From positions 93,185-157,184 of the forward strand of contig JAFUIO010000020.1 in the NCBI GenBank assembly GCA_017468425.1: 64,000 bases of DNA, read 5' to 3'. Below the pieces are notes generated by a model, which did no database searches, was not told where the DNA came from, and worked only from the letters and a program-made list of their open reading frames with translations. Positions 21,630-58,295 of this stretch are shown here, in pieces. A program made the translations under genes and the position numbers. This stretch comes from Clostridia bacterium (lineage in GTDB: Bacteria; Bacillota; Clostridia; Oscillospirales; Acutalibacteraceae). The first letter of the stretch is position 1. Each line of letters starts with the position of its first letter.

Positions 21630-22259
21630 ATGGAAAAACTTATTGCACAGGATTTGCTCTCAATCAGAGCTGTATTTTTCAGACCGGACGAGCCTTTCAC
21701 ATGGGCAAGCGGAATCAAAAGCCCTGTTTATTGCGATAACAGACTTACTCTCACAGCTCCCAAAGTGAGAAATGATGTTGAAAACGCACTTGCAGAAACA
21801 ATCAAAAAAGAATATCCCGAATGTGAAGTTCTTATGGGAACAAGCACAGCAGGTATTGCTCATGCAGCTATCACAGCTCACATTCTTGACCTTCCTATGG
21901 GTTATGTCCGTTCAGGTTCAAAAGACCACGGCAGACAGAACCAGATTGAAGGCAAGCTTGAAAAAGGTCAGAAAGTAGTTGTTGTTGAAGACCTTATTTC
22001 AACAGGCGGCAGTGTTATCGAAGTTGTAAATGTTCTTCGTGAAGCAGGCGCAGAAGTTCTCGGTATCGTAAGCATCTTCACATACGGTATGCAGAAAGGT
22101 CTTGACAGACTTGCTGCTGCAGAAGTTAAAAATGTATCACTTACTAATTTTGACGTTATTGCTAATGTTGCAGCTGAAACAGGCTACATCAAAGCAGAAG
22201 ATGTTGAAAGACTTATTAAATTCAGAAATAATCCTTCAGACGAAAGCTGGATCGGGTGA
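21630..22259 (+). CDS. pyrE: Orotate phosphoribosyltransferase
   Basis: PRPP-binding [13 protein letters not shown]. Confidence 0.9.
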
Positions 22260-22264
22260 ATTAT

Positions 22265-23179
22265 ATGAGAAGTCTTATTGATATTAAAGACCTGTCCATC
22301 GAAGAAATCGATGAACTTATTGTAAAGGCAAACGATATCATAGAAAATCCGAAAAAATATGCACACGCTTGTGATGGTCTCAAACTTGCAACACTTTTCT
22401 TTGAGCCTTCAACAAGAACAAGACTCAGCTTTGAAGCTGCAATGTATGAGCTTGGCGGTAATGTTTTAGGTTTTTCTGAAGCACAGTCAAGTTCAGCTGC
22501 AAAAGGCGAAAGTGTATCTGACACAGTAAAAACAGTAAGCTGTTATGCTGATATTATCGCTATGCGTCATCCTAAAGAGGGTGCACCCTTAGTTGCTTCA
22601 AGAAAAGCATCTGTACCGATTATCAATGCAGGTGATGGCGGTCATAACCATCCTACACAGACTCTTACTGACTTGCTTACAATTCACCGCGAAAAAGGCA
22701 GATTTGATAATCTTACAATTGGTTTCTGCGGTGACCTTAAATTCGGCAGAACAGTTCATTCACTTATCGAAGCGATTTCAAGATATAAGAACATAAAAGT
22801 TGTGCTTATTTCACCGGTTGAACTTAAACTTCCCAGTTACATCAAACACGATGTATTGAGAGCACATAATATCGAATACGTTCAGACAACAAATCTTGAA
22901 GAAGTTATGCCAACACTTGATATTCTTTATATGACACGTGTTCAGCGCGAAAGATTCTTCAATGAAGATGATTACGTAAGACTTAAAGACAGTTATATTC
23001 TTACACCTGAAAAACTTGTGAATGCAAAAGAAGATTTATGCATTATGCATCCGCTGCCGAGAGTTAACGAGATTTCGACTGAAATCGATAACGACAGCAG
23101 AGCTTGCTATTTCAAACAGGTTCTTAACGGTAAATTTATAAGAATGGCTCTTATTCTTAAACTTCTGGGGGTGGAATAA
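22265..23179 (+). CDS. pyrB: Aspartate carbamoyltransferase catalytic subunit
   Basis: STRTR, HPTQ and HPLPR motifs. ATG 22265 preferred over GTG 22256. Confidence 0.9.
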
Positions 23180-23596
23180 TTGATAGTTGATGCAATAAAA
23201 AACGGTATTGTTATTGACCATATCACTGCAGGACATGCTATGGAGTTGTACTCAATTCTCGAACTTGACAAACTTGATTGCACAGTTGCAGTTTTAATCA
23301 ATGTACCCAGTAAGAAAAAAGGAAAAAAAGATATAATTAAAGTAGACACACTTCTTGATGTTGATTTTGATGTTTTGGGTTACGTTGACCCTAATATTAC
23401 TGTCAGCATTATAAAAGACAGTAAGGTTGAAAAGAAACTTGAAATGAAGCTTCCTTCAACTGTTACAAACGTAATTAAATGCAAAAATCCTCGTTGTATC
23501 ACTTCAACAGAGCAGGAGCTTGACCATATCTTCAAACTCACAAATGCTGATAAGAAAATTTACAGATGCATTTATTGCGAAAGTCAGGCAAAGTAA
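23180..23596 (+). CDS. pyrI: Aspartate carbamoyltransferase regulatory subunit
   Basis: AIKNGIVIDHI and Zn motif CKNPRC...YRCIYC. TTG start. Confidence 0.85.
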   Translation: MIVDAIKNGIVIDHITAGHAMELYSILELDKLDCTVAVLINVPSKKKGKKDIIKVDTLLDVDFDVLGYVDPNITVSIIKDSKVEKKLEMKLPSTVTNVIKCKNPRCITSTEQELDHIFKLTNADKKIYRCIYCESQAK

Positions 23597-23677: not shown

Positions 23678-23696
23678 ATTTTTAAGTGAAAATTTA

Positions 23697-23775
23697 TGTG
23701 TTTCTGCAACTGACGGATAAGGTGATTAAACACCGGGGAGCAGAAAAACACAATTTTGTCGACCGTCTGGGCAGT
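23697..23775 (+). promoter_or_regulatory. ZTP riboswitch (pfl motif) aptamer
   Basis: P1 is TGTGTTTCTGC / GCAGAAAAACACA. P2 is GGTG / CACC followed by GGGGAGC. A linker leads to GACCGTCTGGGCA. The pseudoknot GACGG (23712-23716) / CCGTC (23763-23767) covaries relative to the consensus. Confidence 0.85.
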
Positions 23776-23814
23776 TCTGTTTCATTTTTGTGGGAGAGAA
23801 CTGCCTTTATTTTT
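23770..23814 (+). terminator. Riboswitch expression-platform terminator
   Basis: GGCAGTTCT / AGAACTGCC stem then TTTATTTTT. The 5' arm overlaps the aptamer's 3' GGGCA element. Confidence 0.8.
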
Positions 23815-23843: not shown

Positions 23844-24338
23844 ATGAAAAAAGTTGCTATTATTATGGGCAGCGACAGTGACCTGCCTGTTATTGAAAAA
23901 GGTATTGCCAAACTTGAAGAATTCGGCATTGATTTTGAAGTCCATGTTTTTTCAGCTCACAGAACACCTGTTGAGGCTAAAGTGTTTTCAGAAACAGCCA
24001 GAGAAAACGGCTTCGGTGTAATTATTGCAGCAGCAGGTATGGCAGCTCATCTTGCAGGTGCTATTGCAGCTAACACAACACTGCCTGTTATCGGAATTCC
24101 CGTTAAATCAACAAACCTTGACGGTATGGACGCACTTCTTTCAACAGTCCAGATGCCAACAGGTATTCCCGTTGCAACAGTTGCTATCAACGGTGCGGCA
24201 AATGCAGCACTTCTTGCTATTGAAATTCTTGCTGTAACAGATGCTTCACTTGCAGAAAAACTTGATAAAATGAGAAAAGATGGCGCCGAAACGGTTCTCA
24301 AAAAGGATGCGGCAATTTCAGCAAAATACTCTAAATAA
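23844..24338 (+). CDS. purE: N5-carboxyaminoimidazole ribonucleotide mutase (class I PurE)
   Basis: SAHRTP and [10 protein letters not shown] motifs (class I signature). GAGGAGG RBS. Confidence 0.85.
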
Positions 24339-24350
24339 GGAATGATATAA

Positions 24351-25772
24351 ATGGGCGGCTTTTTCGGAGCGGTTTCAAAAAGAGATTGCGTAACAGATGT
24401 TTTCTTCGGAGTTGACTATCACTCACATCTTGGTACAAGACGTGGCGGTATGGCAGCATATGATGAAGAAATCGGTCTGCAGAGAGAAATTCATAACATA
24501 GAAAATTCACCTTTCAGAACAAAGTTTGAAGGTATAACTGAAGAAATGAAAGGTTGTTCATGCATCGGTTGCATCAGTGATAATGACCCGCAGCCGTTGC
24601 TTATGCGTTCAAGGCTCGGCACTTTTGCTATATGTACAATCGGTGCTGTAAATAATGCAAAAGAACTTGTAGAAAACTATTTGTCTGACGGCGGTCATTT
24701 CAGTGCAATGACAGGCGGCAGAATCAATTCAACAGAGCTTGTGGCTGCTCTTATCGGCACTAAAAAGAGCTTTGTTGAAGGTATAAAATTCGTGCAGGAT
24801 ATTGTTGTAGGTTCAATGTCTATTCTGATTCTCAAGGAAGGCGGAGAACTTATTGTTTCAAGAGATAAGCTCGGCAGAATTCCTGTACTTGTAGGTAAAG
24901 ATGATGAAGGCTACTGCGTAACTTTTGAAAGCTTTGCTTATGACAAATTAGGTTATTCTTTTGAAAAGGAATTAGGTCCGGGAGAAATTGTTTCAATTAC
25001 TTCTGATAAATTGGAAATACTCTCTGAGGCACAGAAAGAAATGAAAATCTGTGCATTCCTCTGGACTTATTACGGATATCCTACATCAACTTATGAAGGT
25101 GTTAATGTTGAAGCAATGCGTTGCCGTAACGGTGCAATCATGGCTGAAACAGATAAGAAAAACGGTATTGCACAAAACCTTGATTATGTTGCTGGTGTTC
25201 CTGATTCAGGCACTCCTCACGCAATAGGTTATGCAAACGTAAGTAACGCAGACTTTGCAAGACCATTTATCAAATATACACCCACATGGCCCAGAAGCTT
25301 TATGCCGTCAAGCCAGAACGAAAGAAACAGAGTTGCAAAAATGAAACTCGTTCCCGTTCATGAACTTATTGAAAACAAAAAGCTTCTCTTCGTTGACGAT
25401 AGTATCGTACGTGGTACTCAGCTTCGCGAAACTGTAGATTTTCTTTATGAAAACGGTGCAGACGAAGTTCATATCCGTTCGGCTTGTCCTCCTATTATGT
25501 ACAGCTGTAAGTACCTTAATTTCTCACGCAGTACATCTGAAATGGAGCTTATTGCAAGACAGACAATTATGGAACTTGAAGGCGAAGAAGGCTTTAAATA
25601 TATTGAAGAATACATCGACGGTGAAACTGAAAGAGGTAAAGCAATGCGAAAAGCAATCTGCGAAAAACTTCATTTTTCATCTCTTGAATATCAGTCACTC
25701 GATGGTGTTATAAAATCTATCGGATTGCCGGCATGCAAGGTTTGCACATATTGCTGGAACGGTAAAGAATAA
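24351..25772 (+). CDS. purF: Amidophosphoribosyltransferase homologue lacking the N-terminal Cys nucleophile
   Basis: PRTase motif [14 protein letters not shown]-terminal Cys ligands ([10 protein letters not shown]). The N-terminus reads MGGFFG where canonical PurF has MCG. Confidence 0.75.
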
Positions 25773-25810
25773 GTAAATTATTAATTTTTATATTGAAAGG
25801 AAGATTCACT

Positions 25811-26851
25811 GTGAACAATTCTAAATCTGACAGCTACGCATCAGCAGGTGTTGACATTACTGCCGGTTACAAAGCAGTTGAACTTATGAAACAGCACATT
25901 GCAAGAACAATTACTAAAGGTGCCGCATCCGATATCGGCGGTTTCGGCGGACTTTTTGAACTTGATTTAACAGGTATTTCACGTCCCGTGCTTGTAAGCG
26001 GTACAGATGGTGTAGGTACAAAACTTAAACTTGCATTTATTATGGATAAACATGATACAGTTGGTATTGACTGCGTTGCAATGTGTGTAAACGATATCAT
26101 TTGCTGCGGTGCAAGACCCTTGTTCTTCCTTGACTATATTGCATGCGGTAAGAACGTTCCTGAAAAAATTGCAAGCATTGTTTCAGGCGTTGCTGAAGGC
26201 TGTGTTCAGTCAGGTGCATCTCTCATCGGTGGTGAAACTGCAGAAATGCCCGGTTTCTATCCTGTTGATGAATATGACCTTGCAGGTTTCTCTGTAGGCG
26301 TTGTTGACAGAGAAAAAGTTGTTGATAATAAAACAGTTAAAGAAGGCGACGCAATTATCGCTCTTAAATCAAGCGGTGTTCACTCAAACGGTTTTTCACT
26401 TGTAAGAAAAGTTTTTGATGTTGAAAACAGCGATATCAAAACTCCCGTTGAAAAACTCGGCGGTAAATCAATCGGTGAAACACTTCTTACTCCCACAAGA
26501 ATTTATGTTAAACCTGTTCTTGCACTTCTTGAAGAAGTTAAAGTTAAGGCTATCTCTCACATCACAGGCGGTGGCTTCTACGAAAATATTCCAAGAAGTA
26601 TTCCCAAAGGCTTTGGTGCAAAAATCAAGAGAAGTGATGTTCAGGTTCTTCCGATTTTTGAACTCATTGCAGAAACAGGCAATATCCCCGAAAGAGATAT
26701 GTTCAATACATTCAATATGGGTGTTGGTATGAGCATTGTTGTAGCTAAAGAAGATGCTGATAAAGCACTTGAAATTCTCCGTGCAAACGGCGAAGATGCT
26801 TATATTCTCGGTGAAGTTGTTGCTTCTGAAGAGGGTGTTATCATTGAGTAA
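25811..26851 (+). CDS. purM: Phosphoribosylformylglycinamidine cyclo-ligase (AIR synthetase)
   Basis: [17 protein letters not shown] and GGETAEMPG motifs. GTG 25811 is preferred because of an upstream AAGGAAG. Confidence 0.85.
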
Positions 26852-27482
26852 AAAAAATATTGCCGTACTCGTTTCAGGCGGCGGAACAAATCTTCAGAGT
26901 CTTATTGATTGCCAGAAAAACGGATATTTCGGCAACAGTGAAATTACTCTTGTGGTTGCATCCAAACCCGGTGTTTATGCTCTTGAAAGAGCTGAAAACG
27001 CAGGTATAAAAGGCACTGTACTTGCAAGACGAGACTATGAAGATATTGCTTCTTATTCAAAAGCACTTGTTGAAACACTGCAGAATGCTGATATTGATTT
27101 AGTAGTTCTTGCAGGTTTCCTTACAATAATCGATGAACAGGTTTATGAAGCATATCCTAACAGAATCATAAACGTTCATCCTGCTCTTATTCCGTCTTTC
27201 TGCGGTAAAGGATTTTACGGTTTGCATGTTCACGAAGCAGCTTTGGCAAAGGGCGTTAAAGTTTCAGGTGCCACAGTTCATTTCGTAACACCTGAATGTG
27301 ATGCAGGCCCTATAATTCTGCAGAAAGCAGTTGAAGTAAAACAAGGAGACACTCCTGAAACACTTCAGAAAAGAATTATGGAAGAAGCAGAGTGGAAAAT
27401 ATTACCCCTTGCAGTAAAACTCTTCTGTGAGGACAGAATAACAGTTGAAGATAACATAGTTATTATAGACGAAAGGGAATGA
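26844..27482 (+). CDS. purN: Phosphoribosylglycinamide formyltransferase
   Basis: [13 protein letters not shown] and [10 protein letters not shown] motifs. TTG 26844 overlaps the purM stop. The ORF-track start at 26754 lies inside purM. Confidence 0.85.
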
Positions 27483-27486
27483 TGAT

Positions 27487-28203
27487 ATGGAGATAAAAAC
27501 TATAGCTAATGAACTTAATTCTCTTGCTTATCACGGCAGAGGTATTATTATAGGTAAAAGCGCTGACGGTAAAAAAGCCGTAACCGCTTATTTCATTATG
27601 GGCAGAAGCGAAAACAGCCGTAACCGTGTTTTTGTTGCAGAAGGCGATGCAATGAGAACAAAAGCTTTTGACGAGTCAAAAATGACAGACCCTCATCTTA
27701 TTATTTATTATCCTGTAAGAGTTCTCGGTAACAAAACAATTGTTACAAACGGTGACCAGACAGATACTATTTATGATCTTATGGATAAGCAGATGACATT
27801 TGAACAGGCTCTTCGCACAAGAGAATTTGAAGACGATGCTCCTAACTTCACTCCCAGAATTTCAGGTATTATCCGTCTTGAAAATGACGGTATGAATTAT
27901 GCAATGTCGATTCTTAAGAGCGCAGAAGGTGACGATTCTTCCTGTGAAAGATTTACTTATGCATACTCAAACCCCATCGCAGGTAAAGCAAAATTTATCC
28001 ATACATATAACTGTGACGGAAATCCGCTTCCCTCATTTGAAGGTGAACCGAAAACACTTGAACTTCCCGATGTTTCAATTGATGAACTCACAGACCTTAT
28101 CTGGACGAATTTAAACGAAGATAACAAAGTTTCACTTTTTGTAAGATATATTGATATCGAAAGCGGAGAAGCTGAAACAAGAATTGTTAATAAAAACAAA
28201 TAA
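27487..28203 (+). CDS. IMP cyclohydrolase, PurO-like (stand-alone)
   Basis: About 238 aa. Sits immediately upstream of an AICARFT-only PurH. The YHGRGIIIGKS...FIMGRSENSRNR region resembles the archaeal-type IMP cyclohydrolase family. Confidence 0.65.
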   Translation: MEIKTIANELNSLAYHGRGIIIGKSADGKKAVTAYFIMGRSENSRNRVFVAEGDAMRTKAFDESKMTDPHLIIYYPVRVLGNKTIVTNGDQTDTIYDLMDKQMTFEQALRTREFEDDAPNFTPRISGIIRLENDGMNYAMSILKSAEGDDSSCERFTYAYSNPIAGKAKFIHTYNCDGNPLPSFEGEPKTLELPDVSIDELTDLIWTNLNEDNKVSLFVRYIDIESGEAETRIVNKNK

Positions 28204-28217
28204 TCAGGAGGCAGATT

Positions 28218-29402
28218 ATGAAAGAATTTGAACTTAAATACGGTTGTAACCCTAATCAGAAACCTGCAAAAATTTTTATGTCAGACGGAAAAGATCTGCC
28301 TATTGAAATTTTAAACGGCAGACCCGGTTTCATTAATTTCCTTGATGCTTTCAACAGCTGGCAGTTAGTTAAAGAAATCAAAGAAGCTTTAGGCGAAGTT
28401 GCTGCTACTTCATTCAAACATGTAAGCCCCACTTCAGCTGCAGTTGGTACAAAACTTCCCGAAAGCCTTAAAAAAGCTTGTTTTGTAGATGATATCGAAG
28501 GTCTTGATGATTCTCCTTTGGCTTGTGCATATGCACGTGCAAGAGGCACAGACAGAATGTCATCATTCGGCGACTGGATTGCACTTTCAGACGTTTGCGA
28601 TGTAACAACAGCTAAACTTATCGCTCGTGAAGTTTCTGACGGTGTTATCGCTCCCGGTTATGAACCCGAAGCTCTTGAAATCCTTAAAGGTAAAAGAAAG
28701 GGTAGTTACAATATCGTAAAAATTGACCCTGACTATGTTCCAAATCCTGTTGAACACAAAGATGTTTACGGTATTACATTTGAACAGGGCAGAAACGAAT
28801 TCAAAATTAACGAAGAACTTCTTTCAAACCTTGTAACAGAAAATAAAGATGTTCCCGATAGTGCAAAAAGGGACCTTATTATCGCTCTTATTACACTTAA
28901 ATACACACAGTCAAACTCAGTTTGCTATGCAGTTGACGGACAGGCTATCGGCGTAGGTGCAGGTCAGCAGTCAAGAATTCACTGCACACGTCTTGCAGGT
29001 AACAAAGCTGATATATGGCATCTTCGTCAGCATCCCATGGTGCTCGATCTTCCTTTCCTTGATACAATCGGCAGACCTGATAGAGACAATGTAATTGATG
29101 TTTATATTTCTGATGATTATGAAGATGTTCTTGCTGACGGTAACTGGCAGAAATTCTTCAAAACACAGCCCGCACCTCTTACAAGAGAAATCAAGAAAGA
29201 ATATCTTTCTTCACTTTCAGGTGTTGCTCTCGGCTCTGATGCTTTCTTCCCGTTCGATGATAACATCGAAAGAGCAAAGAGAAGCGGTGTTTCTTATATC
29301 GCACAGCCCGGTGGTTCTATCAGAGATGATGTAGTTATTAACTGTTGTAACAAATACAATATGACAATGTCATTTACAGGAATGAGATTATTCCACCACT
29401 AA
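28218..29402 (+). CDS. purH: AICAR formyltransferase (PurH transformylase domain only)
   Basis: LKYGCNPNQ (compare LRYGENPHQ). 394 aa with no MGS-like cyclohydrolase domain. Confidence 0.8.
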   Translation: MKEFELKYGCNPNQKPAKIFMSDGKDLPIEILNGRPGFINFLDAFNSWQLVKEIKEALGEVAATSFKHVSPTSAAVGTKLPESLKKACFVDDIEGLDDSPLACAYARARGTDRMSSFGDWIALSDVCDVTTAKLIAREVSDGVIAPGYEPEALEILKGKRKGSYNIVKIDPDYVPNPVEHKDVYGITFEQGRNEFKINEELLSNLVTENKDVPDSAKRDLIIALITLKYTQSNSVCYAVDGQAIGVGAGQQSRIHCTRLAGNKADIWHLRQHPMVLDLPFLDTIGRPDRDNVIDVYISDDYEDVLADGNWQKFFKTQPAPLTREIKKEYLSSLSGVALGSDAFFPFDDNIERAKRSGVSYIAQPGGSIRDDVVINCCNKYNMTMSFTGMRLFHH

Positions 29403-29435: not shown

Positions 29436-30674
29436 ATGAACTTTTTCGATGAACTCGCAAATTATGACAGCGAAGTATTTTCAGCTTGTGACCTTGAACT
29501 GAAAAGACAGCAGCACAACATTGAACTTATTGCATCTGAAAACATTGTGTCAAAAGCAGTTCTTCTCGCTGCAGGTACAGTTCTTACAAATAAATACGCA
29601 GAAGGATATCCAACAAAAAGATATTACGGTGGTTGTGAAAAGGTAGACATCGTTGAAAATATCGCAAGAGAAAGAGCAAAAGAACTTTTTGGTGCAGAAC
29701 ACGCTAACGTTCAGCCTCACAGCGGTGCAAACGCAAACCTTGCAGCATTCTTTGCTTTACTTGAATGCGGAGATACTGTTATGGGTCTTAACCTTGCAAA
29801 CGGTGGTCATCTTTCTCACGGCTCACCCGTAAACATTTCAGGTAAATATTTCAACGTTGTTCCTTACGGTGTCGCAGATGATACTGAAATGATTGACTAT
29901 GAGGAAATGAGAAGAATTGCTATTGAATGCAAACCTAAAATGATTGTTTCAGGTGCAAGTGCTTATTCAAGAACACTCGACTTTGCTAAAATCAGAGAAA
30001 TCTGTGACGAAGTCGGTGCATATATGATGGTTGACATTGCACATATCGCAGGTCTTGTTGCTGCAGGTCTTCATCCCAGTCCGGTACCTTATGCAGATGT
30101 TGTAACTTCAACTACACACAAAACACTCCGTGGTCCTCACGGTGGTCTTATTCTTTGCAAAGAACAGTATGCAAAACAGATTGATAAGGCTGTTTTCCCC
30201 GGTACACAGGGCGGTCCGCTTATGCATATTATCGCTGCAAAAGCAGTTGCTTTCGGTGAAGCACTTAAGCCCGAATTCAAAGAATATCAGGCTCAGGTTG
30301 TTAAAAATGCTGCAACACTTTGTCAGGCAATGAAAGATGAAGGCTTCAGAATTGTTTCTGACGGCACTGATAACCACCTTATGCTTGTTGACCTTACTCC
30401 TTTTGATATTACAGGTAAAGAACTTGAGAGAAGACTTGACGAAGTTCATATTACAGTAAATAAAAACACAATCCCCAACGAAAAACAGAGTCCTTTTGTT
30501 ACAAGCGGTATCAGAGTTGGTACTCCTGCTGTTACTTCACGCGGATTCAAAGAAAAAGAAATGCTTCTTATTGCTAAATGGATTAAGCTTGTTGCAACAG
30601 ATTTTGAAAATTCAAAGGACAAAATTGCTGAAGAAGTAATGGCACTTTGTGAAAAGTTCCCGATTTACCAGTAA
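29436..30674 (+). CDS. glyA: Serine hydroxymethyltransferase
   Basis: LIASEN, YYGGC and TTHKTLRGP (PLP lysine) motifs. Confidence 0.95.
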
Positions 30675-30694
30675 TATAATTGGAGGTAGACCCG

Positions 30695-31966
30695 ATGAAG
30701 CTTTTAGTTGTCGGTGGTGGTGGACGTGAACACGCTATCATCAAAAAACTTAAAGAAAATAGAGATGTTGAGAAAATTTACGCACTTCCCGGTAACGGTG
30801 GTATTGCTGCAGATGCAGAATGTGTGGCTATCGGTGCTAAAGATATTGAAAAACAGGTGGAATTTGCAAAAGAAAACAGTATTGATTTTGCAGTTGTTGC
30901 TCCTGATGATCCCCTTGTTTTAGGTGCGGTTGATGCACTTAATGAAGCCGGAATCAAATGCTTTGGTCCGAAGAAAAATGCAGCTATTATTGAAGGCAGT
31001 AAAGTTTTTTCAAAAAATCTTATGAAAAAATACGGCATTCCAACTGCAGAATATGAAGTTTTTTCAGATGCAGAAGATGCACTTAAATATATTGAAACTT
31101 GCCCCATTCCCACTGTTATCAAGGCTGACGGTCTTGCACTCGGTAAAGGTGTTATTATTGCGATGAGCCGTCAGGAAGCTGTTGCTGCAGTAAAAGAAAT
31201 TATGGAAGATAAGGTCTTCGGTGAAAGCGGTAACAATATTGTTATTGAAGAATTCCTTACAGGTCCTGAAGTTTCCGTTCTTTCATTTACAGATGGTAAA
31301 ACAGTTGTTCCTATGATTTCATCAATGGACCACAAACGTGCACTTGATAATGATGAAGGTCTTAATACAGGCGGTATGGGCACAGTAGCTCCCAACCCTT
31401 ATTATACTTCTGATGTTGCAAAAGAATGTATGGAAAAAATCTTCCTTCCTACAATCAATGCAATGAAAGCAGAGGGCAGGGAATTCAAGGGTTGCTTGTA
31501 CTTCGGTCTTATGATTACTGAAAAAGGACCTAAAGTTATTGAATATAACTGCCGTTTCGGTGACCCTGAAACTCAGGTTGTTCTGCCGTTGCTTGAAAGC
31601 GATTTGCTTAACATTATGATTGCTTGTGCTGACGGTACACTTACTGAAGAAATGGTTAATTTTTCAGATGAAAACGCTTGTTGCGTTGTTATGGCATCTG
31701 AAGGCTATCCTAAAAAATATGCTACAGGTTTTGAAATTAAGGCTGAAGAATCAGATGATTACGAGCTTTACATTGCAGGTGCAAAACTTTCAGACGATGG
31801 CAAACTTTTGACCGGTGGCGGACGTGTGCTTGGCGTAGTTTCAAAGGCGGGCACGCTTAAGGGAGCTGTTGAAAAAGCATATAAGTCAGTTGAAAAAGTA
31901 AGCTTTGACAATGCTTTTTACAGAAAAGATATCGGCAGAAGAGCACTCTTGAAAACGGAGGAATAA
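30695..31966 (+). CDS. purD: Phosphoribosylamine-glycine ligase
   Basis: MKLLVVGGGGREHA and an ATP-grasp core. GGAGG RBS before ATG 30695. Confidence 0.9.
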   Translation: MKLLVVGGGGREHAIIKKLKENRDVEKIYALPGNGGIAADAECVAIGAKDIEKQVEFAKENSIDFAVVAPDDPLVLGAVDALNEAGIKCFGPKKNAAIIEGSKVFSKNLMKKYGIPTAEYEVFSDAEDALKYIETCPIPTVIKADGLALGKGVIIAMSRQEAVAAVKEIMEDKVFGESGNNIVIEEFLTGPEVSVLSFTDGKTVVPMISSMDHKRALDNDEGLNTGGMGTVAPNPYYTSDVAKECMEKIFLPTINAMKAEGREFKGCLYFGLMITEKGPKVIEYNCRFGDPETQVVLPLLESDLLNIMIACADGTLTEEMVNFSDENACCVVMASEGYPKKYATGFEIKAEESDDYELYIAGAKLSDDGKLLTGGGRVLGVVSKAGTLKGAVEKAYKSVEKVSFDNAFYRKDIGRRALLKTEE

Positions 31967-31969
31967 TAT

Positions 31970-34900
31970 ATGGTTTACAGAATTTTTGTAGAAAAAAAAG
32001 CAGGCCTTGAAAATGAAGCAAATGAACTCAAGCACGACCTTCGTTCACTTCTTTCAATTAAAGGTCTTGAAAAATTAAGACTTTTCAACAGATATGACGT
32101 TGAAAATATTGACGCAGATTTGTTTGAAAAAAGCAAAATGACAGTTTTTGCTGAACCTCAGCTTGATAATATCAGTGATGATTTTTCTGATGATAATGCT
32201 ATCATTTTTGCAACAGAATACCTTCCCGGTCAGTTTGACCAGCGTGCTGATTCAGCTGCTCAGTGTATTCAGATTATTTCACAGGGCGACAGACCCCTTG
32301 TGAGAACAGCAAAAGTTTACGCTCTCTACGGTGAAATTTCCGATGCTGAACTTGCTGAAATCAAAAAATATGTAATCAACCCCGTTGAATCACGTGAAGC
32401 TTCTCTCGAAAAGCCTGAAACTCTTGCTGTTGATTATGATATCCCCACAGAAGTTGAAACACTCGATGGTTTCCTTAATTTAGATGCAGACGGTCTCGCA
32501 CAGTTTGTTAAATCATACGGACTTGCAATGGATAATGATGATATTAAATTCTGTCAGGATTATTTCAAAACTGAAAACAGAAACCCTACAATCACTGAAA
32601 TCAGAATGATTGATACATATTGGTCTGACCATTGCCGTCATACAACTTTCCTTACAACTATTGATAACGTTAAATTTGAAGATAAGCTTATCGAAGATGC
32701 ATGGAAAGAATATATTGCAAAACGTGAAGAACTCGGCAGAACAAAGCCCATCAATCTTATGGATGTTGCAACTCTCGCAACAAGAGTTCTCAAAGCAAAC
32801 GGCAAACTCGAAAAGCTTGATGAATCTGAAGAAATCAACGCTTGCACAGTTAAAATGACAGTTGACGTTGACGGAGTAGATGAAGAATGGCTTCTTCTCT
32901 TCAAAAACGAAACTCATAACCATCCCACAGAAATTGAACCTTTCGGCGGTGCTGCTACTTGTATCGGCGGTGCTATCCGTGACCCGCTTTCAGGCCGTTC
33001 ATATGTTTACGGTGCTATGCGTGTTACAGGTGCAGGTAACCCCTTGAAGAGCGTTGCTGAAACAATGAAAGGTAAACTTCCTCAGAGAAAAATTGTAAGA
33101 ACTGCAGCTGCAGGTTATTCTTCATACGGTAACCAGATTGGTCTTGCAACAGGTCAGGTTGATGAACTTTATCACGATGGCTATGTAGCAAAGAGAATGG
33201 AAATCGGTGCAGTTGTTGCAGCAGCACCCGCTAAAAACGTTCGTCGCGAAAGACCTGAAGATGGCGATGTAGTTATTCTTCTTGGCGGCAGAACAGGCCG
33301 TGACGGTTGCGGTGGTGCAACAGGTTCTTCAAAATCACATACACTTGAATCTCTTGAATCCTGCGGTGCAGAAGTTCAGAAGGGTAATGCTCCTGAAGAA
33401 AGAAAGCTTCAGAGACTTTTCAGAAATGCAGAAGCATCTTACCTTATCAAACGTTGTAACGACTTCGGTGCAGGCGGTGTTTCAGTTGCTATCGGTGAAC
33501 TTGCTGACGGTCTTGAAATTGACCTTAACAAAGTTCCAAAGAAATATGACGGTCTTGACGGTACAGAACTTGCAATCAGCGAAAGCCAGGAAAGAATGGC
33601 TGTTGTTGTTGAAGAAAAAGATGTACAGAGATTCCTTGAACTTGCTTCTCTTGAAAACCTTGAAGCAACTCCCGTTGCAGTTGTTAAGGCTGAACCTCGT
33701 CTTGTAATGCACTGGAACGGCAAGAAAATTGTTGACCTTTCCAGAGAATTCCTCAACTCAAACGGTGCAGAAAAGCATATTGATATTGCGCCTGCTAAAC
33801 CTGAATGTTATAAGAAAATTGTTGAAGGCTCATTCAAAGATAACCTTGAAGCTCTTGCAGATGACCTTAATGTCTGCTCAAAGAGAGGCCTTTCTGAAAG
33901 ATTTGACTCAACAATCGGCGCTGGTACAGTTCTTATGCCTTTCGGCGGTAAGCATCAGCAGACTCCTATTCAGGCAATGGTACATAAAGTTTCAACTGAA
34001 AAAGCAAAAACAAACAGTTGTTCACTTATGTCTTGGGGTTATAACCCGTTCATCGCTTGTAAGAGCCCCTATCATTCAGCATATCTTGCAGTAATTGAAT
34101 CTGTTTCAAAACTTATTGCAACAGGTGCTAAATTTGAAGATGTATACCTTACATTCCAGGAATATTTTGAGAAACCTCTCAAATCTCCCACACGTTGGGG
34201 TAAACCTCTTTCAGCACTTCTCGGTGCATTCAAAGCACAGCTTGAACTTGAAATTGCTTCAATCGGCGGTAAAGACTCAATGAGTGGTTCATTTGAAGAT
34301 ATTGATGTTCCGCCTACACTTGTTTCTTTCGCTGTTACAACAGAAAAAGTTGACAGCATCGTATCTCCTGAATTCAAAGCAGCAGGCCACAATGTATGTC
34401 TTCTTAAGCCTGAATACGATGAAAACGGGCTTCCCGTAACTGCATCACTTAAGGCTAATTTCGATAAAGTTAATGAACTTCTTTCATCTGGTAAAGCTGT
34501 TGCAGCTTACACACCCACACTTGGCGGTGTAGCAGAAGCAGTTATGAAGATGTGCTTCGGTAATGATATCGGCTTTGAATATAACGCAGAAATTTCAAAT
34601 GATGAAATCTTCGGTTATAACTACGGTGCATTCGTTCTTGAAATGACTGATGATACACAGGTTGGCATTCTTCTCGGTAAAACTACAGAAGAAAAAGCAA
34701 TCGTTAAAGGTGACGAAAAAGTCTGCCTTAATAATCTTCTCAAGATTTATGAAGATAAACTTGAACCTATCTATTCTTGCAACATCGAAACAGAAGGCAA
34801 GGAAATTCCTGCATTCTCATTCGAAGCAAATGAAAGAAAAGCTCCTGCAATCAAGGTTGCAAAGCCGAAAGTTCTTATTCCCGTATTCCCCGGCACAAAC

Positions 34901-35659
34901 TGCGAATTTGACTCAGCAAAAGCTATGGAATATGCAGGTGCAGAAGCTGAAATTATTGTTCTTAATAACCTTACAGCAGACGGTATCACAAGAAGTGTTG
35001 AAAGATTTGCAAAATCTCTTGAAACAGCACAGATGATTTTCGTTCCCGGTGGTTTCTCAGGCGGTGACGAGCCCGACGGTTCAGGTAAATTCATCACAGC
35101 ATTTTTCCGTAACGCTGCAGTTAAAGAAGGTGTAACAAATCTTCTTGAAAACCGTGACGGTCTTATGTGCGGTATCTGTAACGGCTTCCAGGCTCTTATC
35201 AAACTCGGTCTTGTACCTTACGGTAAAATTATTGATACTGATGAAAATTGTCCCACACTTACATTCAATACAATCGGACGCCATCAGTCAAGACTTGTAA
35301 GAACAAGAATCGCTTCTAATAAGTCTCCCTGGCTTGCAGCTACAAACGTAGGTGACGTTTACACAGTGCCGATTTCACACGGCGAAGGTCGTTTCCTTGC
35401 AAGTGAAGAACTTGTCAAGAAACTTGCTGAAAACGGTCAGATTGCAACACAGTATGTTGACCTTGAAGGTAATCCCACAGATGATATCCGTTTCAATCCC
35501 AACAATTCTGTTTGTGCAATTGAAGGTATCACTTCACCTGACGGCAGAGTATTCGGTAAAATGGGTCACTCTGAACGTAAAGGTTACGGACTTTACAAAA
35601 ATGTTGACGGCGTTTACGATATGCAGATGTTCGAATCGGCAGTTAAATACTTTAAATAA
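31970..35659 (+). CDS. purL: Phosphoribosylformylglycinamidine synthase, single-chain large form (PurS/L/Q fused)
   Basis: 1229 aa. ETHNHPTEIEPFGGAATCIGG motif. C-terminal glutaminase with GICNGFQ and HGEG. Confidence 0.9.
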   Translation: MVYRIFVEKKAGLENEANELKHDLRSLLSIKGLEKLRLFNRYDVENIDADLFEKSKMTVFAEPQLDNISDDFSDDNAIIFATEYLPGQFDQRADSAAQCIQIISQGDRPLVRTAKVYALYGEISDAELAEIKKYVINPVESREASLEKPETLAVDYDIPTEVETLDGFLNLDADGLAQFVKSYGLAMDNDDIKFCQDYFKTENRNPTITEIRMIDTYWSDHCRHTTFLTTIDNVKFEDKLIEDAWKEYIAKREELGRTKPINLMDVATLATRVLKANGKLEKLDESEEINACTVKMTVDVDGVDEEWLLLFKNETHNHPTEIEPFGGAATCIGGAIRDPLSGRSYVYGAMRVTGAGNPLKSVAETMKGKLPQRKIVRTAAAGYSSYGNQIGLATGQVDELYHDGYVAKRMEIGAVVAAAPAKNVRRERPEDGDVVILLGGRTGRDGCGGATGSSKSHTLESLESCGAEVQKGNAPEERKLQRLFRNAEASYLIKRCNDFGAGGVSVAIGELADGLEIDLNKVPKKYDGLDGTELAISESQERMAVVVEEKDVQRFLELASLENLEATPVAVVKAEPRLVMHWNGKKIVDLSREFLNSNGAEKHIDIAPAKPECYKKIVEGSFKDNLEALADDLNVCSKRGLSERFDSTIGAGTVLMPFGGKHQQTPIQAMVHKVSTEKAKTNSCSLMSWGYNPFIACKSPYHSAYLAVIESVSKLIATGAKFEDVYLTFQEYFEKPLKSPTRWGKPLSALLGAFKAQLELEIASIGGKDSMSGSFEDIDVPPTLVSFAVTTEKVDSIVSPEFKAAGHNVCLLKPEYDENGLPVTASLKANFDKVNELLSSGKAVAAYTPTLGGVAEAVMKMCFGNDIGFEYNAEISNDEIFGYNYGAFVLEMTDDTQVGILLGKTTEEKAIVKGDEKVCLNNLLKIYEDKLEPIYSCNIETEGKEIPAFSFEANERKAPAIKVAKPKVLIPVFPGTNCEFDSAKAMEYAGAEAEIIVLNNLTADGITRSVERFAKSLETAQMIFVPGGFSGGDEPDGSGKFITAFFRNAAVKEGVTNLLENRDGLMCGICNGFQALIKLGLVPYGKIIDTDENCPTLTFNTIGRHQSRLVRTRIASNKSPWLAATNVGDVYTVPISHGEGRFLASEELVKKLAENGQIATQYVDLEGNPTDDIRFNPNNSVCAIEGITSPDGRVFGKMGHSERKGYGLYKNVDGVYDMQMFESAVKYFK

Positions 35660-57224: not shown

Positions 57225-58295
57225 ATGAAAAAGGTTTACATCGTCCTCGAAGACGGGCACATCTTTGAAGGCAAGGCATTCGGTGCAGAGGGAGAAACTC
57301 TGGGCGAACTTGTTTTCACAACAAGCGTGGTTGGTTATGTTGCAACACTTACAGACCCCCGCTACTACGGCCAGATAATTTTACAGACATTTCCGCTTAT
57401 CGGAAATTATGGCTATATCAGTGAACAACGTGAAAGTGATAAAGTATGGGCAAAGGCTTTCATTGCGAGAGAATGGTGTGAAAACCCATCAAACTTCAGA
57501 TGCGAAAAAACACTTGATGAATATCTTAAAGAACAGGGTGTTATCGGTGTTTATGATGTGGATACACGCGAAATCACTCAGCTTATCCGCGAAAATGGTG
57601 TGATGAATGCTAAAATTGTATCCAGCCTTGATGATATTGATTATGATGAAATCAAGAACTATAAAATTGAAAATGCCGTTGCTGCTGTTTCTGATGGAGA
57701 AACAAAAGTTTACGGTCAGGATAATGATGGTGCAGCAGTTACTGTTGTTAATTTCGGTTATGATAAAAATGCTGTCAAAGATTTGTTGAATCTCGGCATG
57801 AAAGTAACTTCAGTTTCCGCATCTTCAACTGCTGAAGAAATTCTCGCAACCAATCCTCAGGGAGTTGTTCTTTCTGATGGCCCCGGTAATCCTGCTGAAA
57901 ATGAATCAGCAATCGCTGAAGTTTCAAAACTTGTAGGCAAACTTCCGATTTTCGGACTTGGTCTCGGTCATCTTGTTCTTGCTCTTGCAAACGGTGCTGA
58001 AACTTCAAAACTTAAGTTCGGTCATCGTGGTTCTAACCAGCCTGTCAAGAGTCTTAAAACAGGTAAAACATATATCACAAGCCAGAACAGCGGTTATACC
58101 GTAAACGCTGAAAGTCTTGAAAAATGTGGCGGTGAAGTTGCGTTTATCAATGTTAATGACGGCACTTGTGAAGGTGTTGATTATAAAGATAAAAATGCAT
58201 TCTCTGTTCAATACCATCCTGAAGCTGGTTTACGCGACAGAGATGTGGATAAAATATTTGATCGTTTTGCAGCAATGTTGGGAGGTAATGACTGA
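57225..58295 (+). CDS. carA: Carbamoyl-phosphate synthase small (glutaminase) subunit
   Basis: Catalytic triad context GLGLGHL (the expected GICLGHQ Cys position should be checked) and YHPEA. ATG 57225 preferred. Confidence 0.85.
   Translation: MKKVYIVLEDGHIFEGKAFGAEGETLGELVFTTSVVGYVATLTDPRYYGQIILQTFPLIGNYGYISEQRESDKVWAKAFIAREWCENPSNFRCEKTLDEYLKEQGVIGVYDVDTREITQLIRENGVMNAKIVSSLDDIDYDEIKNYKIENAVAAVSDGETKVYGQDNDGAAVTVVNFGYDKNAVKDLLNLGMKVTSVSASSTAEEILATNPQGVVLSDGPGNPAENESAIAEVSKLVGKLPIFGLGLGHLVLALANGAETSKLKFGHRGSNQPVKSLKTGKTYITSQNSGYTVNAESLEKCGGEVAFINVNDGTCEGVDYKDKNAFSVQYHPEAGLRDRDVDKIFDRFAAMLGGND

Follow-up and report, generated by a model that had tools for sequence, protein, structure and literature searches.

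How is the first intermediate of purine synthesis formed when the only PurF encoded in a pur operon lacks the cysteine that hydrolyses glutamine? PurF represents the committed, glutamine-dependent step of this pathway, and the question arises from a stretch of 64,000 nucleotides (contig JAFUIO010000020.1, positions 93,185 to 157,184 of assembly GCA_017468425.1; hereafter the window, in which coordinates are given) belonging to a gut or rumen Clostridia bacterium, the genome of which is 84 % complete (working label G000). A pur operon on the forward strand, which carries all the operon features described below, incorporates a purF homologue of 473 codons (24351..25772; protein P0001), codon 2 of which (GGC, glycine; 24354..24356) falls on the position of the N-terminal nucleophile (Ntn), Cys1. 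An earlier note on this DNA had pointed to the missing nucleophile and proposed either an ammonia-dependent synthase or a partner glutaminase. The cysteine-less PurF is a real, conserved and uncharacterised variant of a known enzyme. Judged from its sequence and from comparison with relatives, it is probably a functional [4Fe-4S] PurF homologue making 5-phosphoribosylamine (PRA) from 5-phosphoribosyl pyrophosphate (PRPP) and free ammonia, not from glutamine, and its relatives in many anaerobes would most likely make PRA from ammonia in the same manner.

The start codon and the phosphoribosyltransferase half

The gene opens with ATG GGC GGC TTT TTC GGA (MGGFFG), and in-frame TAA stops are situated 5' of the start codon at 24336-24338 and 24348-24350, with the second abutting the ATG (upstream in-frame translation ...AKYSK*GMI*M, where asterisks denote stops). 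Thus, as the earlier note had stated, no upstream start could provide the protein with a cysteine. In a phmmer comparison against all Protein Data Bank (PDB) chains, the top match was the mature PurF of Bacillus subtilis (1AO0; E = 4.7e-42), and the alignment pairs G3-F-F-G of the query with G2-V-F-G of the mature enzyme, which therefore places Gly2 of the query exactly at the Cys1 position and bears out the loss of the nucleophile. As GGC is a single base away from TGC, a sequencing error affecting codon 2, named in the earlier note as a possible refutation, or else a fault in the assembly or a wrongly assigned start, could produce the same picture. However, of 97 genes of the family in independent assemblies, 91 encode MGGFFG at the N-terminus, four MGGYFG, and one each MGGIFG and MGGFCG, with codon 2 being GGC in 38, GGA in 37 and GGT in 22. 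The use of three synonymous glycine codons excludes the misreading of TGC as GGC. Furthermore, MGGFFGAV is identical in the 12 same-genus orthologues and four additional glutaminase residues are replaced in the same protein, and with the stops abutting the ATG an artefact is scarcely conceivable and was rejected.

The phosphoribosyltransferase (PRTase) domain (25041..25769) incorporates the GVPDSG and DDSIVRGTQ motifs and the putative [4Fe-4S] ligands C234, C386, C462 and C465. The PRPP loop and GVPDSG align with the corresponding B. subtilis motifs and, like D350, S351, V353, R354 and T356 and the flexible-loop basic residues, are near-invariant. The four cysteines align with the B. subtilis [4Fe-4S] ligands C236, C382, C437 and C440, with C234 and C386 likewise among the near-invariant columns. 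This half of the protein and its C-terminal cysteine ligands are thus intact, in agreement with the earlier note. The ratio of non-synonymous to synonymous substitution rates (dN/dS), determined from the 12 same-genus orthologues (median dS approximately 1, which is near but not beyond saturation), is 0.045 for the PRTase domain. An AlphaFold2 model built from 45 sequences (mean predicted local distance difference test score, pLDDT, 93; predicted template modelling score, pTM, 0.91) shows the two-domain fold, Ntn and type I PRTase. When compared with 1AO0 using Foldseek, this model gave an E-value of 4.8e-36 and template modelling (TM) scores of 0.82 and 0.85, and the PurF proteins of B. subtilis, Arabidopsis and Escherichia coli were matched at TM 0.82-0.86, followed by GlmS and GFAT, which matched the N-domain only.

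The state of the PRTase half bears on whether the protein synthesises PRA at all. It could instead be a pseudoenzyme, a regulator or a PRTase using another nucleophile, with PRA originating elsewhere, for example non-enzymatically from ribose-5-phosphate or from PRPP and ammonia. Such a role would be in keeping with a score of 174 bits, far under the curated purF cut-off of 350 bits, and with the last residue of the PRPP loop, which ends in RGTQ rather than the canonical RGTT; PurF-independent PRA formation is also known in enterobacteria (PMC7668255). However, the motifs for PRPP binding and catalysis are retained, together with the Fe-S site, under the low dN/dS given above. The gene is invariably found in the purF position, immediately 5' of purM, in operons encoding the rest of the pathway, and a dedicated first step would otherwise be missing from 45 of the sampled genomes, which have full pur operons. 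A function other than PRA synthesis is thus decidedly unlikely.

The former glutamine site and the source of nitrogen

The N-terminal Ntn domain (class II glutaminase-like; residues 1-230; 24351..25040) matches Pfam GATase_7 (PF13537) over residues 76-192 at 28.4 bits, above the gathering threshold of 25 bits, a match which reflects membership of the fold rather than catalytic competence. Residues were mapped in an alignment that comprised, besides the query, 28 close and 32 diverse relatives as well as 11 PurFs of the canonical type from Clostridia, with canonical glutaminase-site residues given in E. coli numbering. In addition to the replacement of Cys1 by Gly2, Arg26 is replaced by Leu27, Arg73 by Ser76, Tyr74 by Asp77, Asn101 by Ile97 (the neighbouring Gly98, canonical Gly102, being kept) and Asp127 by Ser127, the last after a five-residue insertion. 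Conservation at each of these positions is 100 % among the 11 canonical proteins. A divergent ten-residue stretch also takes the place of the canonical LQHRGQExG, and the divergence of the remaining glutaminase half described in the earlier note therefore extends well beyond the nucleophile.

Full-length members of the family with as little as 32 % identity to the query start with M-(G/S/T/A)-G-x-x-G and carry G-T-D-Y-H-S-H-L-G where canonical enzymes have L-Q-H-R-G-Q. The N-domain signature of the family (D22-Y23-H24-S25-H26, H48, S76-D77, D79 and N126) is present in full in the query, and its family-specific conserved polar residues (D22, Y23, H24, H26, H48, S76, D77, D79 and N126) are situated in the canonical glutamine-binding elements. 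The substitution of two arginines by serine and leucine, together with the appearance of two new aspartates, would fit a pocket that does not bind an amino acid carboxylate and possibly binds a cation. An N-terminal Ser or Thr as substitute Ntn nucleophile was rejected for the family as a whole, as position 2 may be G, S, T or A in members of a single clade; it is invariably Gly within the subclade of the query. A second metal or Fe-S site at C69/C71/C74 (GCSCIGC) was likewise rejected, as C69 and C71 are Asn and Ala in relatives and C74 is Val in the wider clade, and C13 is similarly not conserved.

Both domains are under strong purifying selection. In comparison to the PRTase domain, dN/dS is 0.066 for the N-domain as a whole and 0.047 for its first 40 codons, and the lowest value (0.032) is found for the loops that build the canonical glutamine pocket. 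Mean pairwise identities of the N- and C-domains are 0.69 and 0.77 among the cysteine-less proteins and 0.60 and 0.63 among canonical PurFs, which represents a similar ratio. The N-domain is therefore not decaying. The low dN/dS of these loops, the family-specific polar residues within them and the conservation of Ser76 (94-97 % across the cysteine-less clade) could also point to a site that has been rebuilt, with His24/His26/His48, Ser76, Asp77/Asp79 and Asn126 forming a new hydrolytic or metal centre that frees ammonia from glutamine or another amide or amine and feeds it to the old channel. In that case the protein would have remained an amidotransferase, but one with a relocated catalytic apparatus. 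However, both arginines holding the glutamine alpha-carboxylate have been lost, along with the aspartate holding the amino group, and position 2 as well as position 97 are variable, so that the old oxyanion geometry is gone, while the conserved residues may equally serve in ammonium binding or domain contacts. To our knowledge there is no precedent for catalytic relocation among the class II amidotransferases, and a rebuilt glutaminase is considered rather unlikely.

Synthesis of PRA from free ammonia has a counterpart in the laboratory. In E. coli PurF, mutation of Cys1 abolishes the activity with glutamine, while that with NH3 is kept (Mei and Zalkin 1989, summarised in PMC3261824), and the PRA synthesis that this summary ascribes to the mutants is the activity proposed for the cysteine-less enzyme. 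However, the glutamine site of these point mutants is intact apart from Cys1, and they have no Fe-S cluster, while in the query the whole site has been remodelled and then conserved by selection. The cysteine-less family may thus represent a natural, fixed version of the Cys1-mutant state. Retention of an Ntn domain after loss of Cys1 and glutaminase activity is also observed in beta-lactam synthetase and carbapenam synthetase, which are homologues of AsnB, but these have another synthetase domain, catalyse another reaction and do not use ammonia. The single-domain NadE and AsnA similarly use free ammonia where it is plentiful; unlike the query, which keeps a conserved glutaminase-like domain, they have no such domain at all or belong to unrelated folds.

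In the proposed mechanism, NH3 or NH4+ would enter through, or be caught at, the remodelled former glutamine pocket, the lining of which would be provided by the conserved His24, His26, His48, Ser76, Asp77, Asp79 and Asn126, and the ammonia would then travel to PRPP via the pre-existing interdomain channel. The N-domain may have been kept to close the PRTase site, to build oligomer and regulatory interfaces and possibly to bind ammonium. A more specific, and tentative, suggestion drawn from the residue pattern is that the dead pocket could act as a site for ammonium capture and deprotonation (Asp22/Tyr23/His24/His26/His48/Ser76/Asp77/Asp79), loosely resembling the way in which an aromatic residue, Ser and twin His are arranged in Amt channels, which would feed NH3 into the old channel and give a Km for NH4+ that is physiologically low; or these residues could make up a hydrolytic centre, invented anew, that acts on another nitrogen donor. 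In an ammonia-rich gut or rumen habitat the ATP cost of the glutamine route would be unnecessary, and such economy appears the likeliest reason for the loss. A shortage of glutamine was rejected as an explanation. Each of 17 genomes of the genus has two copies of glutamine synthetase, PurL of the same operon keeps GICNGFQ (Cys1070), GlmS and AsnB keep their catalytic cysteines, and an open reading frame (ORF) for a CarA-like class I glutamine amidotransferase (GATase) is present. With glutamine synthetase encoded and the glutaminase cysteine kept in PurL, GlmS and AsnB, the loss is specific to PurF and does not reflect a lack of glutamine.

Copy number, gene neighbourhood and distribution

The earlier note had taken this gene to be the only purF, in an operon controlled by ZTP. 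A ZMP/ZTP riboswitch aptamer is located 5' of the operon (23696..23779; Rfam RF01750, 59.6 bits against a gathering threshold of 39, E = 1.3e-7, full model 1-86), and a canonical purF was not detected in this genome (84 % complete), where GlmS (which starts MCGI) and AsnB are the only other TIGR01134 matches. In 15 of the 16 further genomes of the genus, some of them 98 % complete, the PurF type scoring approximately 170 bits is the only one, with a canonical copy in the remaining genome (G003). Both parts of this claim were thus upheld.

The cysteine-less PurFs form a family of their own. The query scores 174.4 bits against TIGR01134 and diverse members of the family between 151 and 232 bits, compared to a curated equivalog cut-off of 350 bits, and there is no NCBIfam or Pfam model specific to the family. 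A homologue search returned at least 8000 clusters, and among the matches listed all share at least 73 % identity with the query and are named amidophosphoribosyltransferase where they are named. Identities of 55-93 % are shared with hundreds of family members, while an exhaustive search of representatives at the 50 % identity level yielded 585 clusters at E <= 1e-30. In a maximum-likelihood tree, 42 cysteine-less proteins are separated from 13 cysteine-bearing PurFs with a Shimodaira-Hasegawa-like approximate likelihood ratio (SH-aLRT) support of 98, the sample of canonical proteins being narrow. Compared to B. subtilis PurF (1AO0, 1GPH; TIGR01134; EC 2.4.2.14), to which it is 28 % identical, the query has the two-domain fold (TM 0.82-0.85), the PRTase motifs, the four Fe-S cysteine ligands and the operon position in common. 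It differs in having neither propeptide nor Cys1, in the replacement of Arg26, Arg73, Tyr74, Asn101 and Asp127, in the five-residue insertion before the Asp127 position, in the RGTQ end of its PRPP loop, in scoring at half the curated cut-off and in its placement in the separate clade. Three proteins (P0248, P0155 and P0165) are cysteine-less yet keep LQHRG with Arg at the Arg26 position, and P0248, which also keeps Asp127, is the first branch within the cysteine-less clade. Given this early branching and the retained parts of the site, the three look like intermediates between both types.

The distribution of MGGFFG-type homologues, which the earlier note had suggested should be determined, was assessed in 300 Clostridia genomes of at least 90 % completeness, with family membership set at 55 % identity or higher. 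Cysteine-less PurFs, which fall in the one clade, occur in 84/300 genomes (28 %) and 57/176 genera. They also occur in the Bacteroidales, with a member from the Muribaculaceae being 47 % identical to the query, and look-alike clusters in the ESM Atlas from Thermodesulfobacteriota, Bathyarchaeota and Methanobacteriota provide a lead to a wider range. No match above the purF cut-off was observed in 45/84 carriers, which are spread over 18 GTDB families. Only the cysteine-less type is found in the families f21 (12/12 genomes) and f66, as well as in the cultured Evtepia gabavorous KLE1738 and a Lawsonibacter isolate.

The remaining 39 carriers contain both PurF types. Canonical and cysteine-less purF genes may stand side by side in either order, as in a locus of G201 (L022; G201:C7:63505-66402), at G394:C177:2235-4893 and in six of the loci L044-L123, while the two are in tandem in a metagenome-assembled genome of Agathobaculum. 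Such adjacent copies suggest condition-specific isozymes or a mixed oligomer. A further Clostridia genome (G218) has two purF matches below the cut-off (best E = 1.8e-44), neither of which matches the cysteine-less family at E <= 1e-90, and may carry yet another divergent PurF type.

Gene context was compared across 80 loci (L044-L123) from named gut and rumen genomes. The cysteine-less gene holds the purF slot in all 80, in the order purE-(purC)-purF-purM-purN, with purM following 3' at a median gap of 7 nucleotides and purE or, more often, purC preceding it; a canonical purF adjoins it in 6/80 loci. No further conserved gene, and no gene for a partner glutaminase, was found beside it in these loci. 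This bears directly on the second proposal of the earlier note, in which a separate glutaminase subunit would dock on the dead N-domain and deliver ammonia. Split amidotransferases exist, as in PurL/PurQ/PurS and archaeal GuaA, and ORFs of approximately 216-245 amino acids that encode a class I GATase on its own occur in same-genus genomes. However, in addition to the absence of a conserved extra gene, with purE or purC on one side and a short gap to purM on the other, the only PF00117 domain detected in this genome is in a CarA-like ORF, and a role as partners of short GuaA proteins accounts better for these separate GATases. A docking partner is accordingly very improbable.

Of the two proposals, the ammonia-dependent synthase has thus gained from the dismantled glutamine site, the intact PRTase half and Fe-S ligands, the purF slot and the sole copy, and these together favour it, while the partner glutaminase has lost ground for want of a conserved neighbour. 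Several points weigh against PRA synthesis from ammonia. The constrained polar residues (His, Ser and Asp) are unexplained by a simple loss of glutaminase activity and could indicate another ligand or chemistry. Both PurF types occur in 39/84 carriers, sometimes in tandem, and the two are therefore not simply interchangeable. As the genome is 84 % complete, the absence of a canonical purF from it rests on the genus-wide pattern. Furthermore, full-text literature searches yielded no paper on cysteine-less PurF enzymes.

If PRA is indeed made from ammonia, purine synthesis would be tied directly to ambient ammonium in a large proportion of the anaerobes of gut, rumen and sediment, considering that 28 % of the sampled Clostridia genomes carry the family, that about half of these carriers have no other PurF, and that Bacteroidales such as the Muribaculaceae are included. 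These proteins are currently annotated as plain amidophosphoribosyltransferase (EC 2.4.2.14), and metabolic models would therefore wrongly require glutamine at the PurF step. The family would also represent a natural experiment in the repurposing of an amidotransferase domain after loss of its nucleophile. As cultured hosts with the cysteine-less enzyme as sole copy are available (E. gabavorous KLE1738 and Lawsonibacter sp.), the question is directly testable.

Other glutamine-dependent enzymes and the remaining operon genes

Several other nitrogen-transferring enzymes of the genus were compared with regard to a wider shedding of glutaminase parts across the genome, an idea that was confirmed in part and would lend weak support at best. 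NadE is of the short, NH3-using type (approximately 245-260 amino acids), which is common in anaerobic Firmicutes anyway. GMP synthase is encoded in most genomes of the genus by an ORF of 339-386 amino acids without a fused N-terminal glutaminase domain (e.g. G004:C17:118298-118573), and stand-alone GATase ORFs of approximately 216 amino acids may represent the other subunit of a split GMP synthase. The usual fused form (521-532 amino acids) is found at G003:C47 (L128) and G010:C26 (L129), the former genome being that with the canonical PurF. The only PF00117 domain detected in the 84 %-complete genome under study is located at 57744-58271 of the window (G000:C16:150928-151455), in a CarA-size ORF of 375 amino acids, while same-genus genomes have two to four. 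CTP synthase (PyrG; Pfam CTP_synth_N) was not found in this genome, in five others of the genus that are 92-98 % complete (G004, G007, G009, G012 and G013), or in 17/60 other genera of the family represented by genomes of at least 90 % completeness. The pyrB/pyrI genes (22256-23596) and a CarA-like gene are present. De novo synthesis of uridine monophosphate thus appears possible, but that of cytidine triphosphate apparently not.

The operon begins with purE, encoding N5-carboxyaminoimidazole ribonucleotide mutase (23844..24338; TIGR01162, 198.8 bits against a cut-off of 149.6), which is separated from the cysteine-less purF by 12 nucleotides, where most relatives have purC in between. No purC was found anywhere in this 84 %-complete assembly. 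It is present in 10/10 same-genus genomes searched and probably lies in the unassembled 16 % of the genome; this gap therefore matters for single genes, while the rest of the pathway should be complete. Downstream of purF are purM (25793..26851; TIGR00878, 447.8 bits) and purN (listed ORF 26754..27482; TIGR00639, 196 bits), the true start of which is probably near 26850, as the profile match begins at residue 34. Further along, glyA, encoding serine hydroxymethyltransferase, is embedded in the operon (29436..30674; NF000586, 640.8 bits), followed by purD, the product of which consumes PRA (30680..31966; TIGR00877, 531.5 bits), and by purL for a single-chain formylglycinamidine ribonucleotide synthase with an intact glutaminase domain (31970..35659; TIGR01857, 1853.5 bits). 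Between purN and glyA, the last two steps of purine synthesis are split over two proteins (27487-29402), a PurO-like inosine monophosphate cyclohydrolase (27487..28203; NF003167, 54.4 bits, below the curated cut-off of 150) and a PurH restricted to the 5-aminoimidazole-4-carboxamide ribonucleotide formyltransferase function (28218..29402; NF005492, 693.9 bits).

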